Below are positions 4,258 through 48,956 of a stretch of DNA of 64,000 nucleotides, in pieces. This DNA comes from Octopus vulgaris (Eukaryota), in assembly GCA_951406725.2 (NCBI GenBank), contig OX597818.1, forward strand, positions 107,012,001 to 107,076,000, read 5' to 3'. How positions within the stretch are numbered: position 1 is the first letter of the stretch; every line of letters starts with the position of its first letter. Made by a program: the position numbers and the translations under genes. The notes beneath the pieces are model-generated. The model saw nothing but the letters and a program-made list of their open reading frames with translations, was not told where the DNA came from and did not search any database.

Positions 4258-4661
4258 AGACAGTGGCTGTGTGGTAAGAAGCTTGCCCCAACCACATGGT
4301 TCTGGGTTCAGGCCCATTGCATGGCACCTTGGGCAAGTGTCTTCTACTATAGCCTCGGGCCAACCAAAGCCTTGTGAGTGAATTTGGTGGATGGAAACTG
4401 AAAGTAGCCAGTCGAATATATAAATATGTGTGTATGTGTGTGTCTGTATGTATTTGTGTGTCTGTGTTTGTCCCCCACCATCGCATGACAACCGATGTTG
4501 GTGTGTTTACGCACCCATAACTTAGCAGTTTGATAAAAGAGACTGATAGAATAAGTACTAACTTACAAAAAATAAGTCCTGGGATCGATTTGTTTGACTA
4601 AAGGTGGTGCTCCGGCATGGCCGCAGTCAAATAACTGAAACAAGTAAAAGAATAAAAGAGT
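4258..4661 (+). mobile_element. tRNA-derived SINE, family A
   Basis: Head TGGCTGTGTGGTAAG...GGTTCAGGCCC (A/B-box-like), internal (TG)n, tail ACTGAAACAAGTAAAAGA; matches 20256-20671. Confidence 0.85.
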
Positions 4662-11270: not shown

Positions 11271-13159
11271 AATTCACATATGCACCATCGCACAAATACA
11301 TTATGTTTTCTCCATCTTTTGCAGACAATTTCTCCTAAAACATAACACACTCTCAATATAATCATATATTTCCTCCTCCATTTTCTCATATCTTCTTCCT
11401 TTTCCTTCCCCTCTTTCTTTTAACCTCACTTCCTCCCATACTTCACATCCTTCATTTCTTTCTTTACTTTTCTTTCTACTTCTTTGTCCTTATTTCCTTC
11501 TTCTTTTCCCTTTTCTACTTTCACTTTCACTCTCCACTTCTCTCTCTTCATCTTTTCTCCATTCTCATTATTCTTTATGTTCCAGCCAAAATGCTATGAA
11601 CTGGTATTTACCCAGCATTTTGTGTGAAATATACTTTACAAAATATTTACTCAAATATGTTTACCAAAAGCAAATAGAAATATGAAATATGAGGAATAAT
11701 TTTGAAAAGTTTCTAAATTGATTTGTCAAACTCAACCAACAAGTATTTCTCTCCCTGATGGTTACATAGCAGCGCTATCCTTTGAAAAGATCTGCTGAAT
11801 GAACAAACATTAGTTATCACATAATAATTTTAAGCATTACCAAATCATTTAGCAAGTGTTGGTCATCTCAATCACAGCTTCAAACTCTATTTTTGCAACA
11901 TCCAAGAAATACAACCACTTCTTCCATCAAAAGACAAACATATTAGTTTGGATCTCAAATGTGATAAATGCTATGATCAGTAATGGAGAACACTGTGCAA
12001 ACCTTTGCAACCAGATACTTATTTTCTTCTGCTATTTATGCTAACTGAAATTTATCCAATCAAAATGTATTTTTCTCCAATGCATGTCTTAGCAATTTTT
12101 TATTGACTCTCAAACAGATGTTTTCTGTTTTCTCTATTTTTGTTTTTATGTTTGATTTTTTTTTTAAGGAATTATTTTAGCTTCATCTTAACAGCTTTAA
12201 TATAACTCATTTTTATTCCATCTTCGCCCATTTAGTTCTGTTCTCGATACCATTCTTCTGTTACTTTGTCACTGTTAACTGAAAGCTTTTGAGGAAACAG
12301 TGGTGATGGCAGGACAATTATATGACAGATTCCTTGAAGAAAAGAATTCTTGTTCAGTCACTAGTGACTTTAAAATAGTCGTCTACATTTGTTTTTTGCA
12401 ACAACAAGTACATAACAAAGATGTGATAACCATAACCATAACACCAATATGATACGAAATCAGGATTCACTGTACTTTATATAATAAATTGTAATTGATA
12501 TTCCACCATTTTTCTGATTATTATACCTGTCACACCACTAATCCAGGTAGTTCCATGGATATCTAAGACTTTATATAAGTCCTTATTTTACAACAGCAAA
12601 TAATAAAGTTGTAACAAGCAATATAGTTTAGTCAGGAGGAACTATCAGCACCTGATGACCTTTGCAGATCCTCTTACGTTGTCAAGTCGGATGGCATCTG
12701 ATCTTGACACAGCATCTCAGCCAGTTCATGCGTCTTCTTTAAAAAATAAGATACCTTGTGCTTTTCTGTTTTTTAAATATATACGTCATAAGATGGCAAA
12801 CTGTTGGTTCTTCTGAGCTGCTGCCAAAATTTTGATCAGCTGCATCACTAATGTCTGTTTGTTAAGCACAGCTGAGTAAGACTTTACAAAGCCATTTCTA
12901 GCAGAACCAACAACAACAACACCACCACCACCACCAGCGGTCATAGTCATAGCTGCTAAACAGTCACATCATCTCCTAGACATATCAGTTAAATCTCCCC
13001 AGAAAACAGGTACTTCTAGAAATAATATTCTGGAAAAAATATTCTTAGTCAGAATGTCTGCTGGAACGGAGCAGACAGTGCTTAAACAACAACAACAATA
13101 AGTGAGAGCAACTTTTCTCGCTTATGTCTTTTTTGTTTCCTAATATTTCTCTCACTTTC

Positions 13160-13740
13160 AGGCAGAGTGCTAGCAGAAACATTAGTACATCGGGCAAAAT
13201 GCTTAGCAGTATTTCATCTGTCTCTATGTTCTGAGTTCAAATTCCGCCGAGGTTGACTTTGCCTTTTTTCTGTTCGAGGTCGATAAATTAAGCACCAGTT
13301 GTGTACTGGGGTTGATCTAATTGACTGGCCCCCACCTCCCCCAAAATTTCAGGCCTTGTGCCTAGAGTAGAATAGAATAATGGTAAGTACGAAGGCGGTG
13401 AGCTGGCAGAAATGTTAGCATGCCGGGCGAAATGCTCAGCGGTATTTCGTCTGCGTTACGTTGTGAGTTCAAATTCCGCTGAGGTCGACTTTGCCTTCCA
13501 TCCTTTCGGGGTCGATAAATTAAGTACCAGTTACGCACTGGGGTCGATGTAATCGACTTAATCCGTTTGTCTGCCCTTGTTTGTCTCCTCTGTGTTTAGC
13601 CCCTTGTGGGTAGTAAAGAAATAGGTATTTTGTCTGTCTTTATGTTCTGAGTTCAAATTCCGCCGAGGTTGACTTTGCCTTTCATCATTTTGGAGTCGGT
13701 AAATTGAGTACCAGTTGCATACTGGGGTTGATCTATTGAA
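13160..13740 (+). mobile_element. tandem family B SINEs (monomer plus dimeric copy)
   Basis: Head GGCGGTGAGCTGGCAGAA; body GAGTTCAAATTCCGCCGAGGTCGACTTTGCC present three times. Confidence 0.85.
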
Positions 13741-13958
13741 AAACCAATCAAGAGGCCAGCAGTTCACATGCTAATGCTAATAAAATGTTGTGTCCAAAGC
13801 TAAGGGACTTAATTTTCTGCTGGTTCAGTCCATTTGGAGAAAATAAGTGTCACAAGGTGTTTTTACCTTGTGACACTGTAAGCAGCTGAAAGACTGCAAA
13901 ATTGACAAGGGATTCAATTAACTTGCAAGGTTGAGTACACATTATCTTGGAGATTTTA

Positions 13959-14357
13959 GGCAGTGAGCTGGTAGAATTGTTAGCACGCCGGCGAAATGCA
14001 TAGCGGTATTTCGTCTGCCGCTACGTTCTGAGTTCAAATTCCGCCAAGGTCGACTTTGCTTTTCATCCTTTTGGGGTCGATTAAATAAGTACCAGTTATG
14101 CACTGGGGTCGATATAATCGACTTAATCTGTTTGTCTGTCCTTGTTTGTCCTCTCTGTGTTTATCTCCTTGTGGGTAGTAAAGAAATAGGTATTTCATCT
14201 GTCTTTATGTTCTGAGTTCAAATGCTGCTGAGGTCGACTTTGCCTTTCATCTTTCTGGGGTCAATAAATTAAGTACCGGTTGCATTCTGAGGTTGATCTA
14301 ATCGACTGATCCCCTCCCCAAAAATTTCGGGCTATGTGCCTAGAGTAGAAAAGATTA
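13959..14357 (+). mobile_element. dimeric family B SINE
   Basis: Same architecture as 13394-13740, including the AAAGAAATAGGTATTT junction. Confidence 0.85.
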
Positions 14358-28600: not shown

Positions 28601-29351
28601 ATGCTAGCTTCTGCTGTGTTTTGATAATTGAAGGTCAAACTAATTCGTTATTCATCTGTGTTTCATGAATTAGTAACTCTTGCTAAAATTTTAATGAGTC
28701 GTCAGCAGGAGTTAAACCCTCGGTTTAGATTTTATAAATGGCCTTTCATGCAAGCTCTGAGGATTTTTACAGAAATGTAGAGGTTACAGGAGTGAAATGC
28801 AAACTTGTTATGAGGAAAAAAGAAAATTCTGCTGAAAATAACTTTTGCTTTTCATAATTTATAAAATAAATTTACGTATTGAGTATGAAGATAATGTACA
28901 CTGCAGATTCCTTGTACATCTTCTCAACGGTTAAAACTGTCATTCATGTTCCAAGTCTGTAGTAGATTCTTAATTTCCATTCTGTGTTACACATTGAGCC
29001 ATTATTGAGGGTTCCAATAGTGTATTATTAATAGTTAAGAAACCCTCATTCATTCCCTCTGCAGCACAACATGGATGACCCCAAGGGAGGGAAAAAGGGA
29101 AGAGAGAGGGGGGGAAAAGAGAGAGAGAAGGAAGAGGGGGGAGAGAGAGGGAAGGAAAAGTGAGAGCGAGGAGAATCAACTCCAGTGCTTTTACTGATTT
29201 TTCATTTGTTGATCCCAGAAAGATAAAAGACATGGTTGACCTCATCAGGATTTGAACTCAGAGCATAACCTGCCACAATAAATACTGCAAAGCATTCAAC
29301 CTGATACAAAAGCAATACTACCAGTTTGCTGCAGCTTTAGTATTACTTAGT

Positions 29352-29720
29352 GGAGGCACAATGGCCCAGTGGTTATGGCAGCAGACTCGCGGTCATGGGA
29401 TTGCAGTTTCGATTCCCAGACCGGGCGTTGTGAGTGTTTACTGAGCAAAAACACCTAAAGCTCCACGAGGCTTTGGCAGGGTGTGGTGGCGAACCCTGCT
29501 GTACTCTTTCCCCACAACTTTCTCTCACTCTTTCTTCCTGTTTCTGTTGTACCTCTATTTCAAAGGACCAGCCTTGTCACACTCTCTATGTCATGCTGAA
29601 TCTCCCCGAGAACTGCACATGTTTGTCGGGTGCTCAGCCATTTGCACATTAATTTCACGAGCAGGCTGTTCTATTGATTGGATCAACTGGAACCCTCATC
29701 ATCGGGACCAACAGAGTGCC
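29352..29720 (+). mobile_element. tRNA-derived SINE, family C
   Basis: GGAGGCACAATGGCCCAGTGGTT...GTTTCGATTCCC; matches 56166-56559. Confidence 0.88.
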
Positions 29721-30800: not shown

Positions 30801-31568
30801 ACTTTGTGACAAGTGTTCTTGGAATTTTTATATGGTGCTTTTTGCAGTGGAATAATACTGTTACATACTCACAGTGCTTGTAAGTAGAACCTGCTTAATG
30901 TATAAACTTAATGTTCTACCTGCTTAATGTAACAGCCAAAGTTCTTTTAACTATCTCTGGAATGTGACCCACATATAAAAAGACATACATCTTAGTATAT
31001 AACAACAAATCTGGTGAAGTCCCTACCAGAATGACAATGAAATTATTAGGTTCAAACGGCTGTAACGTTTCTCTGATATTATTACGTCACAAGACATAGT
31101 TTTATATTTATAAATATGGTAGGGTGTCACGTTTTGCAACTGGATGAGTTGAAGAAATTTGACAGATTGAGATTGAGCAAAAAACTTACTCTGTAGAGAA
31201 AATATCCTCTCTTGAGATGTTAAAAAAAGAAATCCAAAAAACTAAAATCAATGAAGAAAACTTGAAAAGTTTTGATCAAAACCTTTAGGCAATGTAGATA
31301 GGTTGGAGAAGGTCTATCATTTTACTGTCAACTGGAGAAAGCAAAGAACATGTTTCAAGCTTGTTAGACCTCCTTAGCAAAGCATATTCTTCTTAGATAA
31401 CAAGATTTGAGTGATCAGTATGTGTGTGTGTGATCTAAATTATTAGGTATGCTAGGTAAGTGCTGTAACGCATTACTGGGGCTCCAGTAAAGCCGAGATG
31501 GTAGTTATAGAGCCATTGCAGATTTCCAGTGCAGCAGATATATAATTGCTAAACAGGATGTCACACAT

Positions 31569-31721
31569 TAAGGCAAGGCAAACATCTCAAGTCATACAAT
31601 ATCATTATAGGAAGCAATTCAAGATCTTACAGATCGGGGATTTCCCAGAGAACAGCTGTAAGATTTTAAATTTCTTCCTATAATAGTATTGTATTTGACT
31701 TGAGATGTTTGTCTTGCCTTA
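31569..31721. repeat. palindrome centred on a partial hammerhead (inverted PLE-like terminal repeat)
   Basis: Arms TAAGGCAAGGCAAACATCTCAAGTC...TCTTACAG and CTGTAAGA...GACTTGAGATGTTTGTCTTGCCTTA; centre CCCAGAGAACAGCTGTAAGA. Confidence 0.75.
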
Positions 31722-31745
31722 GCATTTAATGTCCTCATTAACAAA

Positions 31746-31800
<55 letters not shown>

Positions 31801-43722: not shown

Positions 43723-44610
43723 GATTTTCCTGGGTTAAAAAAGTAGTAACATAGTCCTATGTATACAGATATATACATATATATATATAAAGCAAAAATT
43801 CCTCAGCTGCATAAAGACATGGAATTAAATTAAAACAGATGGGCACATTAGTATGTGTCCATCTGTTTTAATTTGATTAAATTCTATGACTTTATGCAGA
43901 TGAGGATTGCTCTGCATTTAAATTGATGAAATTTAATAGGAAATACACACAATAAATACCATATCTCCATACCCACAGTTTACACAGGTAGAGTAGAATA
44001 GTTAGTGGACTGTTAGGTAGATGAATGTATGTATGTGGGTGTGAGTGTGTGTGTATGCCATTTTTTAAAATCATTCTTATTTTTTGTTTTTTTTTGTTTT
44101 TGTTATATTTTTATATTTTTAATTATTTTTAAATATTTTTTTTCTGTATGTAAGCATTTAGATATGTAAATAAACAGATCAACATACAGACAGATAGGTA
44201 CATAGGTTACAAGAACAGACACATATGGAGACACGGATCCACACATATAAAGATGCACATCCATACATACAAACATGGTACATAGTTACATAACACACAT
44301 ACACACAGATATGCACACACAAGGAGACAGAGGTGCATACATATACAAACATATGCTCACACACACATACATAGAAAATACACAAACACGGACAGGTGAG
44401 CACATAAATATACAGGATATGTACATACAGATGCATACACATACATACATATGCATACACACACATATATACATACATACACATGCAAACACACACATAC
44501 ATACACACATACATACATGCATGTATAGGCACACATACACACACTGACCCACACACATGCACACAAACAAAGAAAAGGGAACGCAGTGTAAATAATGGAC
44601 AGAATCAAGA

Positions 44611-44647
44611 CTATTGAAAAGGTTGCAAGACGCAACGAAAATTTTAG
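44611..44647 (+). ncRNA. minimal hammerhead-like motif, U3-A8 core variant
   Basis: CTA-TTGAAAA-G-GTTGC-aagac-GCAAC-GAA-AATT-T-TAG. Confidence 0.5.
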
Positions 44648-44738
44648 AAAATAAAAATAAGAAATAAGTGGAAATTTTACCGGTGAGTGTGTTAAATAAT
44701 AAGGCACTAAAAGAGAATGACTCTCCCCAGACACAACA

Positions 44739-44774
<36 letters not shown>

Positions 44775-44776
<2 letters not shown>

Positions 44777-45044
44777 GTCTGGTACCTGTGTCGGTGGCAC
44801 ATAAAAAACACCATCCGAGCGTGGCCGTCTGCCAGCCTCGTCTGGCACCTGTGTCGGTGGCACATAAAATCACCCACTACACTCTCGGAGTGGTTGGCGT
44901 TAGGAAGGGCATCCAGCTGTAGAAACACTGCCACATCTGACTGGCCTGGTGCAGCCTTCGGGCTTCCCAGACCCCAGTTGAACCGTCCAACCCATGCTAG
45001 CATGGAAAGCGGACGTTAAACGATGATGATGATGATGATGATGA
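44775..45044 (+). mobile_element. RTE-type 3' end in (TA)n
   Basis: Two GTGTCGGTGGCACATAAAA modules, (GAT)n tail, TA flanks. Confidence 0.85.
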
Positions 45045-45123
45045 TATATATATAAAAAGGAAATGAAGAAAATGCTGACAAAATAATTTAAGTAAGAGAG
45101 AGTGTATTTAATTAGGTGAAAGT

Positions 45124-45163
45124 TCTTTTTACCGGTTGCGCATTTGTTATGCTTATCAAAAGA
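45124..45163 (-). ncRNA. minimal hammerhead-like motif, U3-A8 variant with a GCAA lesion
   Basis: Minus strand TCTT-TTGATAA-GCAT-aacaa-ATGC-GCA-ACCGGT-A-AAAAGA. Confidence 0.6.
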
Positions 45164-45241
45164 TATTTTTTTAAGAGAGATAGAGTTCCTTTCTGATAGA
45201 TTTTTTTCTCTTATCTGACTTTATGTTGGGTTTATATATAT

Positions 45242-45504
45242 AAACAATTGCGGTGTGGAAGGTGTTTATAAGCCATTTAAGAACTGTTAGATTCACTTCA
45301 ACATTTAAATTTAATTTGTCAAAATAATTTCGTTGCTTTGAGACCGCGACCTGCTCATTGACAAAATTCCATGCTGCATCTCTGTGCTGCAGCACGGAAT
45401 TTTGTCAAAGCAACGAAAATATTTTGACAAATTAAATTTAAATGCTGAAGTGAATCTAACAGTTCTTAAATGGCTTATAAACACTTTTCATGTTGCAATT
45501 GTTT
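45242..45504. repeat. ~260-bp palindrome (inverted PLE-like repeats)
   Basis: Arms AAACAATTGC...GTGTTTATAAGCCATTTAAGAACTGTTAGATTCACTTCA and its reverse complement; 9-nt loop at 45379-45387. Confidence 0.9.
45315..45365 (-). ncRNA. hammerhead-like motif with C8 core variant
   Basis: Minus strand TTTGTCA-ATGAGCA-G-GTCGC-ggtctcaaa-GCAAC-GAAA-TTAT-TT-TGACAAA; 7-bp stem I. Confidence 0.5.
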
Positions 45505-45753
45505 CTCTTCCAGTACACGATATCAGATCAGGTCACTTGCTATGCAAGTACATCTCCGTAATATATATATACACACACATATAAAATGGGATTCTTTCAG
45601 TTTCTGTCTACCAAATTCTCTCACAAGGTTTTGGTTGGCCTGTGGTTATCATAGAAGACACTTGTCCAAGGTGCCTTGCAATGGGACTGAACTCACAACC
45701 GTGTGGTTTGGAAGCAAACTTCTTACCACACAGTCATAAATATACATGTATTT

Positions 45754-47148: not shown

Positions 47149-47636
47149 GAATAAGAGGAAATAAACAGGGAGAGAATAAGAAAACTTGTGGAGTTATATA
47201 TACATATATACACACCCATACCCTGACAGTTTGCTGTGCTTGAGAAGACCTGTCAAGCTAAGTAAAAGCATGGTTGTCCTTGCACACAGGATTGTCCCTT
47301 ACATCCCGCTTCAGCTGAGCAATGTTAACCTCGCGGACCCGTGGGGTGCTGGGGCCATGGAAAAAGCACCTATGCTGGGGCCACATAAAAGAACCCACGC
47401 TGGTGCCACGTGAAAAGCACCCAGTGTCACTCTGTAAAGTGGTTGGTGTTAGGAAGGGCATCCAGCTGTGTAGACCATGCCAAAGCAAACAAGGGAGCCT
47501 AAGCAGCTCTTCAGGGGTCCAGCTCCAGTCAAACCCATTTCAGCACCATAAAGCAAATGTTAAAAGATAATGATGTTGATATATATATATATAGAGAGAG
47601 AGGGGGGAGGGAGGAAAGGAGAGAGAGAGAAAAGAG

Positions 47637-47859
47637 GAAAAAACACAGAACATTTGTTTTATAGGATTTAAGAGTATATTAGAGCCACAATAATAAAGAT
47701 ATTATATAATTTTGTACAAAATAAGGTCTTGTTCTTCCGACATGGTTCAATTATCTTGGAAGAACAAAACCGTATTTTGTACAAAATTATATAATCTCTT
47801 TATTATCATGGCTCTAATATACTCCTAAATTCTGTAAAACAAATGTTCTGTGTTTTTTC
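47637..47859. repeat. ~220-bp imperfect palindrome
   Basis: GAAAAAACACAGAACATTTGTTTTA... pairs with ...TAAAACAAATGTTCTGTGTTTTTTC; ~100-bp arms. Confidence 0.9.
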
Positions 47860-47917
47860 ATCTTTTATATATCTCTATTTATATCTACCACGTGTGTTTT
47901 CCCACTAAAGTATTTTC

Positions 47918-48257: not shown

Positions 48258-48586
48258 ACACACACACACACACACGCACACACTAATGCGCGCACACACA
48301 CACACACACATATAATTCACAGAAGAGATCCAGAGATTCTCTGTATAGAAGACATTTAGTAGTGCTCAAAAGATTCAAAATTAGACTGCAATATCTTTAC
48401 AGGGGATCATTTCACAAGCTAAAGTAAGGTTATGAGAGGGATCAAGTTGACTAGGTATAGAGTCAATTATGTGGATAAACAAATTAGATACATCAAATAT
48501 ACAAGATTTATTAAATTTATTAGTTTCTGCATGCATTACAAAATATCTACACATGTAAAACAAGAGAAAGCAAAACGCGGAGGTTT

Positions 48587-48734
48587 TCAGGTGATCAGTT
48601 TTTTAGTCTAAATCTATAGATATTTATATTAATAAGTCCAACTTACACAGAGTTCTCTGTCGTTTGTACTCTCTGTTAGTTGGACCTGTTAATATAAATA
48701 TCTATATTTTTAGACTAAAAAATTCATCACCTGA
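48587..48734. repeat. ~150-bp imperfect palindrome
   Basis: CAGGTGAT..TTTTTTAGTCTAAA..TAGATATTTATATTAA..GTCCAACT mirrored as AGTTGGAC..TTAATATAAATATCTA..TTTAGACTAAAAAA..ATCACCTG. Confidence 0.9.
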
Positions 48735-48956
48735 TAATTTTCACTCTTTGATTATTTTTGATTTTGCAACTATATATATATAGTATGTATTTATGTATGT
48801 ATACACATGCACACACATATTTTGTATTTCATACACAAACTAATATATTTAACATCTTTCATATATTTGATGTATCTAACTTGTTTATCTGCATAATTGC
48901 TTATATGGCAGACATTAAGTGATGATAATGATGATGATAATGATGATGACAACAAC

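Follow-up and report, generated by a model that had tools for sequence, protein, structure and literature searches.

We consider it highly probable that three sequences in the 64,000-nucleotide stretch of Octopus vulgaris DNA analysed here (the window) are decayed 3′ ends (pseudo-LTR remnants) of three high-copy families inserted at (TA)n. One of the families can be traced to a Penelope-like element (PLE) and the other two are likely to be PLEs. All three contain a predicted hammerhead of minimal type I, which would cut as a dimer or when assisted by the protein of the element.

Three minimal hammerhead motifs

The cores named in the preliminary description all lie at the positions claimed for them (Table 1). 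A relaxed descriptor of the minimal hammerhead (N-U-G-A-N-N-A with or without one extra base, 4 or more pairs of stem II with G-C as the closing pair, G-(A/C)-A, a palindromic stretch running from A15.1 to U16.1, H17 and a stem I of at least 2 bp) gave exactly three matches on both strands of the 64 kb, and these are motifs 1, 2 and 3. Across 150 block-wise dinucleotide shuffles of the window it gave 4 matches in total, and none in any of the 150 when a 3-8 pair was required; the descriptor was composed after the motifs had been seen and permits GCAA and a 2-bp stem I, so that these counts somewhat understate chance. The three motifs are real and not chance occurrences.

At the Rfam gathering score the whole 64-kb window contains no match, hammerheads included, and none of the 46 matches that Rfam gives for 44400-45700 at E ≤ 10 is a hammerhead. 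Standard models therefore miss all three motifs, as had been predicted. A scan of metagenomes with the motif-3 pattern returned one locus (L001), which was rejected as chance because it is GC-rich and has neither stem II nor GAAA.

Motifs 1 and 3 contain U4, G5, A6, A9, G12, A13, A14, A15.1, U16.1 and H17, and stem II is closed by G10.1-C11.1 in all three motifs. As described previously, every core is followed by a paired stem II (5 bp in motif 1, 4 bp in motif 2, 4 pairs and one mismatch in motif 3), and the two motifs said to have an extra G and a UU site are motifs 1 and 3. The closing stem I ascribed to each was found in motif 1 (3 bp) and motif 3 (7 bp) but is overstated for motif 2, where only 2 bp are in register; helix I in published PLE hammerheads ranges from 2 to 7 bp. 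The palindromic stem III sequences are AAUU in motif 1, ACCGGU in motif 2 and AAUAUU in motif 3, where the sequence is that of the family majority and of the right arm of the inverted repeat.

In motif 1 the extra G (44621) precedes stem II (44622-44636) and GAA, and the predicted cut follows U17 at 44644. Motif 2 has no extra nucleotide and reads G12-C13-A14, with C13 at 45138 and A17 at 45130. Its conspicuous 6-bp helix consumes U3 and U4, and the hammerhead register leaves 2 bp at the junction; contig depth dips directly upstream of the motif, and the 2-bp stem I was read from the window copy. Two other readings of motif 2 were discarded: a rewired, non-circularly permuted hammerhead, considered by eye in view of the weak stem I, since all core parts stand in type I order, and a type III hammerhead, whose stem III would have only 2 bp. 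The window copy of motif 3 has GAA and a near-palindrome, with U17 at 45322, after which the cut is predicted.

Table 1. Features of the locus, with positions in the window
Feature	Position	Strand	Description
Family 1 3′ remnant	44590..44736	+	Left edge approximate; directly before (TA)n; putative PLE end
Motif 1, predicted minimal type I hammerhead fold	44611..44647	+	Core UUGAAAA 44614-44620, U3-A8
Abundant interspersed repeat, unrelated to the motif families	44775..45045	+	(GAT)n tail; inserted where a (TA)n run separates elements 1 and 2
Family 2 3′ remnant	45056..45231	-	Ends at (TA)n about 74 nt past the predicted cut; putative PLE end
Motif 2, predicted hammerhead	45128..45161	-	Core UUGAUAA 45159-45153, U3-A8; stem II 45152-45140
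Left arm, family 3 end	45242..45381	-	Short 3′ end, then (TA)5
Motif 3, decayed copy, predicted hammerhead	45315..45365	-	Core AUGAGCA 45358-45352; family majority G3-C8
Right arm, second family 3 end	45382..45562	+	Core lost by a 20-nt deletion; tail 45505-45560; then (TA)n
First 31 codons of a Penelope-like ORF	45470..45562	+	ATG at 45470; cut off at the element 3′ end

Three high-copy families at (TA)n

The window is AT-rich (26-41% GC), with abundant microsatellites and interspersed repeats, and the proteins that match the locus best are Octopus gene models. Family copies were sampled through Logan contigs of five public runs, placed on the window at 80% likeness, with 4 runs each for the regions 45062-45545 and 44572-44738; summed contig depth, as used below, is not copy number. 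Between 786 and 11,625 contigs per run were placed on 45062-45545 (4 runs) and between 7,170 and 19,152 on 44572-44738 (4 runs). The elements bearing motifs 1, 2 and 3 are all high-copy repeats.

Among the matches listed in a BLAST comparison of the region with the window, the three motifs' elements show no cross-match, and a 263-nt inverted repeat (45242-45504) is the sole long self-match of the region. These are three unrelated sequences of a common architecture, with different stems and palindromes. TA runs abut all four element ends, each 3′ end lying at (TA)n or an AT-rich target. With each motif in a different high-copy repeat that ends at (TA)n, the locus represents three separate insertions and not one device. 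Elements 1 (+) and 2 (-) converge from either side on a (TA)n run interrupted by a 270-nt repeat, which we take to be SINE-like and of which the window holds about ten more partial copies, often beside (TA)n. Taken by itself, the locus is unremarkable: repeat DNA in decay, made up of retroelement ends.

Elsewhere in the window, other repeat families occur at 4262-4661, 13156-14357 and 29350-29719, and a stop-free frame at 1014-1589, presumably a retroelement remnant, matches DUF7083 (E 2.5e-11, above cut-off). There are also four further long inverted repeats (31538-31752, 43800-43906, 47620-47876 and 48464-48899), most of them adjoining TA-rich runs. The relaxed descriptor finds no hammerhead in any of the four, which may represent further PLE families with ends in inverted arrangement.

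The core of motif 1 is the family majority, with no variant of at least 3% at 44614-44620 in 4 runs. Element 1 ends at 44736, beyond which the loose ends are unrelated, 92 nt past the predicted cut, and 11 of the 15 family 1 joints among those listed are strand inversions. Four of the five varying places in the family 1 ribozyme are CpG sites, and the variation within it is mostly CpG decay. Leaving these aside, one of 33 places varies in the ribozyme as against 12 of 87 in the 3′ flank (one-sided p=0.08); with CpG sites included the figures are 5 of 37 and 14 of 89 (p=0.49). This non-significant contrast, which lends no independent support, is expected for dead copies of few masters. True covariation would be visible only between families. 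The 3-8 complementarity expected of the family consensus was found, as U-A, U-A and G-C in the three family majorities. The U3-A8 pair noticed earlier in motifs 1 and 2 is also the majority core of both families in the public-run contigs.

Two further features of family 1 were observed. A second palindrome, ACCGGT, lies at 44679-44684 on the forward strand, 35 nt past the predicted cut; it is the stem III hexamer of motif 2, in a locally similar context. Family 1 also has variants at 44604 and 44646-44648 (in run X1, 12% insertion and 32% substitution at 44646-44648), and these, with the loose-end consensus, suggest a subfamily whose putative stem I extends by 3 pairs past a 4-5-nt bulge, like canonical type I.

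Family 2 depth declines towards 45231 and is still high at the 45062 edge. Position 13 of motif 2 is C, not A, with no variant of at least 8% in 4 runs. No family 2 substitution reaches 8% from 45098 to 45165 in the 4 runs, so that U3-A8 together with C13 is the family state.

Motif 3 in the window has an A-C mismatch at 3-8, which the preliminary description had read as G3-C8 with one later mutation. In the family majority, position 3 (45358) is G in 97-100% of summed depth in all 4 runs, and no variant is listed for C8. That reading is thus right, and the A3 of the window copy is a private mutation. The copy departs from its family at three more places: position 7 (45354), where A has 98-100% of depth, the stem II mismatch (45334), paired in 84-91%, and palindrome position 45327, restored in 98-100%. 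The majority form has an extra G, a 5-bp stem II, the AAUAUU palindrome, a UU site and a 7-bp stem I, within which a variant at 45319 (19-28% of depth) retains the pair as G-U.

One arm of the inverted repeat at 45242-45504, which the preliminary description did not mention, holds motif 3. The other is a fourth copy of the motif, on the forward strand, that lacks 20 nt including the whole core (alignment A1). Its tail of about 56 nt (45505-45560) is missing from the left arm, and contigs of other copies span arm and tail. The centre of the repeat is copy-specific, with a summed depth of about 1,700 vs 0.5-2 million in the arms (run X1).

Link of family 3 to a Penelope-like open reading frame

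The 31-residue frame in the right arm matches the start of the protein P0002 (E 5e-4 among 1.84 billion proteins) and is identical at 24 of 31 positions to residues 1-31 of P0003. P0002, P0003 and P0004 overlap; the link is a chain of partial gene models rather than one continuous locus. At E ≤ 1e-5, P0004 has 29 protein matches of 680-1222 aa, and these long relatives show DKSG, PPLYGLRKDHK, YxDD, mostly a CX2-5CxxC linker (23 of 29) and YxGE(T/S). The CxCX5C linker occurs in none of 33 proteins, and by that feature the relatives of family 3 are not of the Hydra clade. Pfam applied to 12 relatives gave RVT_1 and GIY-YIG in P0013 and RVT_1 in P0008, all below curated cut-offs. By these sequence matches, family 3 is tied to a predicted endonuclease-bearing PLE with a reverse transcriptase, a C-terminal GIY-YIG domain and a Neptune/Nematis-type linker, a layout described for such elements in PMC8557442. 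P0003 is an Octopus gene model in which the PLE N-terminus is fused to a methyltransferase domain; the fusion is probably a gene-model chimera.

In a tblastn comparison of 32 proteins with the window, the only match was at 45470-45562. No ORF link was found for families 1 and 2, which have no coding match in the window, and Pfam found no reverse transcriptase or GIY-YIG domain in 143 of its 251 stop-free frames of at least 70 aa, the other 108 having been dropped as low-complexity. Families 1 and 2 are likely to be PLE ends on purely architectural grounds: the type of hammerhead, how far it lies from a sharp 3′ end, the TA target and, in family 1, the inversion joints.

A homologue search with a 41-aa frame found none, and in the ESM Atlas P0002 had no usable match and P0004 matched only unnamed or DUF8422 clusters. 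With a PLE alignment (A3), none of 30 candidates in viral contigs was a relative, and one of 36 in genome contigs was (L002). This contig, filed in a Desulfobulbaceae MAG, holds a PLE reverse transcriptase-endonuclease ORF at 11-2310 and is most likely animal host contamination; it has no hammerhead and ends about 370 nt past the stop codon.

Comparison with known hammerheads

The minimal hammerheads of PLEs have no stable stem III and cleave weakly as dimers (PMC4209133). In the consulted parts of that paper they resemble the motifs described here in their type I order, short helix I, extra nucleotide after A9, G10.1-C11.1 pair, palindromic 15.2-16.2 for dimers and UU sites, and also in occurring mostly as solitary truncated copies and in opposite-strand pairs 100-700 bp apart. 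A PLE-linked Schistosoma motif in its Fig. S3 shares the UUGAAAA core, 3-bp helix I and UU site of motif 1. U3, and with it the U3-A8 covariation, appears in 3 of the 56 rows of that figure; G3 appears in none of the 56, and the GAAA column, as extracted, is without GCAA, whereas family 3 here has G3-C8 and family 2 has C13. Published PLE hammerheads (PMC4209133) thus already include examples of U3-A8, the extra nucleotide, a stem III that is palindromic and the UU site. A study of natural core variants likewise reports U3-A8 covariation in nature and a swap that is active in vitro (PMC3088659); its consulted text names U3-A8, A6C, insertions and U15.1-A16.1, but not G3-C8 or A13C.

The Hydra-clade PLE hammerheads, including Hydra-1_Obim (PMC8557442), are similar in their (TA)n targets, palindromic stem III, octopus host, and RWK-like and DK(S/T) motifs. 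They differ in that all 34 rows of the paper's File S2, as consulted, start with CUGA and none of the 34 has G3, and in the Hydra CxCX5C linker, which the relatives of family 3 do not have. The family 3 tail of about 56 nt is also longer than the 30-40 bp described there. A search of the consulted supplement of PMC8557442, where line breaks could hide some matches, for the ORF start and for short motifs from each family yielded no element sequence; the few matches were in unrelated contexts.

A parallel to the ends of family 3 in the consulted parts of the literature comes from Anolis (PMC11167929). There a PLE hammerhead overlaps the ORF start and cleaves only with the element's protein, reverse transcription begins from two sites, and insertions end 111-118 bp into the ORF. 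Cleavage of a C3G/G8C double mutant was partly restored; insertion in vitro did not depend on cleavage, and no RNA ends were seen at the cut site by RNA-seq. Like this Poseidon element (PAc), family 3 has its hammerhead at the ORF start, ends no further than ~120 nt into the ORF, a pair of 3′ ends that yields a tail, and an AT-rich target. Its ends lie some 35 and 92 nt past the ORF start and fit the Anolis geometry. PAc has a natural C3-G8 pair and its ATG in stem II (PMC11167929), whereas family 3 has the natural swap and an ATG 45 nt past the predicted cut. Family 3 also differs from PAc in its ~56-nt tail and in its related proteins, which have the CX2-5CxxC linker of Neptune/Nematis type.

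In a full-text literature search, G3-C8 appeared only as a laboratory variant or mutant and A13C did not appear; most subscription papers lay outside its scope, among them the key paper of Lunse, Weinberg and Breaker, which may already list G3-C8 or A13C. Going by its title, that paper reportedly concerns numerous small PLE-associated hammerhead variants that cleave as dimers. The consulted passages of PMC13725137, PMC10085705 and PMC7229834 contain neither G3-C8 nor A13C. Motif 1 falls within published PLE variation, and what may be new here is the natural G3-C8 of family 3, tied to a PLE ORF, and the combination of U3-A8 and C13 in family 2.

Proposed mechanism and alternative explanations

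In active master elements, the palindrome of stem III would hold two copies together. The active geometry would be retained, at a lower rate, by the swapped 3-8 pair, and the swap may have survived because the pair matters more than its identity. Cleavage would trim element RNA from tandem or host read-through transcripts, and the element protein would start reverse transcription less than 100 nt into the ORF, at a nick in AT-rich DNA, which would leave short 5′-truncated ends like those at the locus.

Folding predictions are of mixed bearing. With RNAcofold, the palindrome of motif 2 pairs between copies in the dimer (-19.1 vs -9.8 kcal/mol for two monomers), and G5-A8 is buried in a small competing hairpin in the predicted fold; the dimers predicted for motifs 1 and 3 fall short of a full hammerhead dimer. 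An RNA that spans both arms of the inverted repeat is predicted to form a hairpin of -156 kcal/mol. The copies at the locus are very likely dead, given that motif 3 has no 3-8 pair and would be buried in this hairpin and that its partner arm has no core.

Might the variant ribozymes have been inactive already in the masters? We regard it as possible, although doubtful, that the families are PLE ends in which the motifs, motif 2 above all, are relic folds or protein-binding or dimerising signals, with cleavage dispensable. Changes at A13 are strongly harmful to the hammerhead. Motif 2 has C13 together with a 2-bp stem I, and G3-C8 rescues activity only partly. Within the consulted parts of the reports, hammerhead mutants were without effect on Anolis PLE insertion in vitro (PMC11167929) and Naiad PLEs spread without canonical hammerheads (PMC8557442). 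Yet G3-C8 needs two individually inactivating changes (PMC11167929, as consulted), so that pure drift would rarely reach this compensatory pair, and family 3 retains the other core letters, both stems and the palindrome. An improbable reading takes families 1 and 2 not for ends of ORF-bearing PLEs but for retrozyme-like elements without autonomy, in which small circular RNA repeats depend on PLE enzymes for their movement. It would suit the missing ORF link and the family 1 subfamily with extended stem I suggested by the variants at 44646-44648 and the loose-end consensus, and retrozymes have been reported as PLE derivatives (bioRxiv 10.64898/2026.07.22.740005). The window, however, holds no tandem or direct-repeat copies, and the short helix I, the extra nucleotide and a 3′ end 74-92 nt past the cut fit the PLE minimal type better than they fit tandem repeats, in which helix I is canonical and has 6 bp.

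All descriptor matches of the 64 kb lie within 760 nt, and motifs 2 and 3 share a strand, as might be expected of a single locus-specific cassette that processes a host transcript. We give this very little credence: each motif is a copy of a separate high-copy family, and motif 3 has four departures from its family majority and is predicted to be locked in the -156 kcal/mol hairpin with the other arm. Being in unrelated families with incompatible stem III palindromes, the three motifs carry no function by their adjacency. In the consulted literature, PLEs tend to insert adjacent to earlier copies (PMC6765202), and they target (TA)n, leaving inverted 5′-truncated copies with a tail of 30-40 bp at one end (PMC8557442); the clustering is thus attributable to a shared insertion target. 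Least credible of all is a reading of the 263-nt palindrome as a MITE or a microRNA hairpin in which motif 3 is incidental. Its arms are long and inverted, and Rfam matches mir-1990 at 45349-45415 with an E of 4.6e-6, but at 35.3 bits against a gathering score of 63; the centre is copy-specific, the arm ends are unequal and one arm runs into the start of a PLE ORF. On account of this ORF link of the right arm, both the mir-1990 and the MITE readings were rejected.

Implications

In the hammerhead, G8 supplies the 2′-OH for catalysis, and it was mostly through engineered swaps that its pairing with C3 came to be established. A natural high-copy G3-C8 family is the evolutionary version of that experiment. 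It argues for selection on the active-site pair in PLE hammerheads, although cleavage looked dispensable for insertion in vitro, and so bears on the role of ribozymes for PLEs; the C13 family probes a second position supposed to be fixed. As descriptors and Rfam models miss all three motifs, hammerhead counts in PLE-rich genomes are underestimates.

We tentatively propose, well short of confidence, that a PLE family of Neptune/Nematis type fixed the swapped G3-C8 pair and that a second family spreads with U3-A8, A13C and a 2-bp helix I, both cleaving as dimers or with protein assistance. On that view, core changes that canonical hammerheads do not tolerate would be acceptable in those of PLEs, and many of the PLE families recorded as lacking a hammerhead may simply escape CUGANGA/GAAA descriptors.
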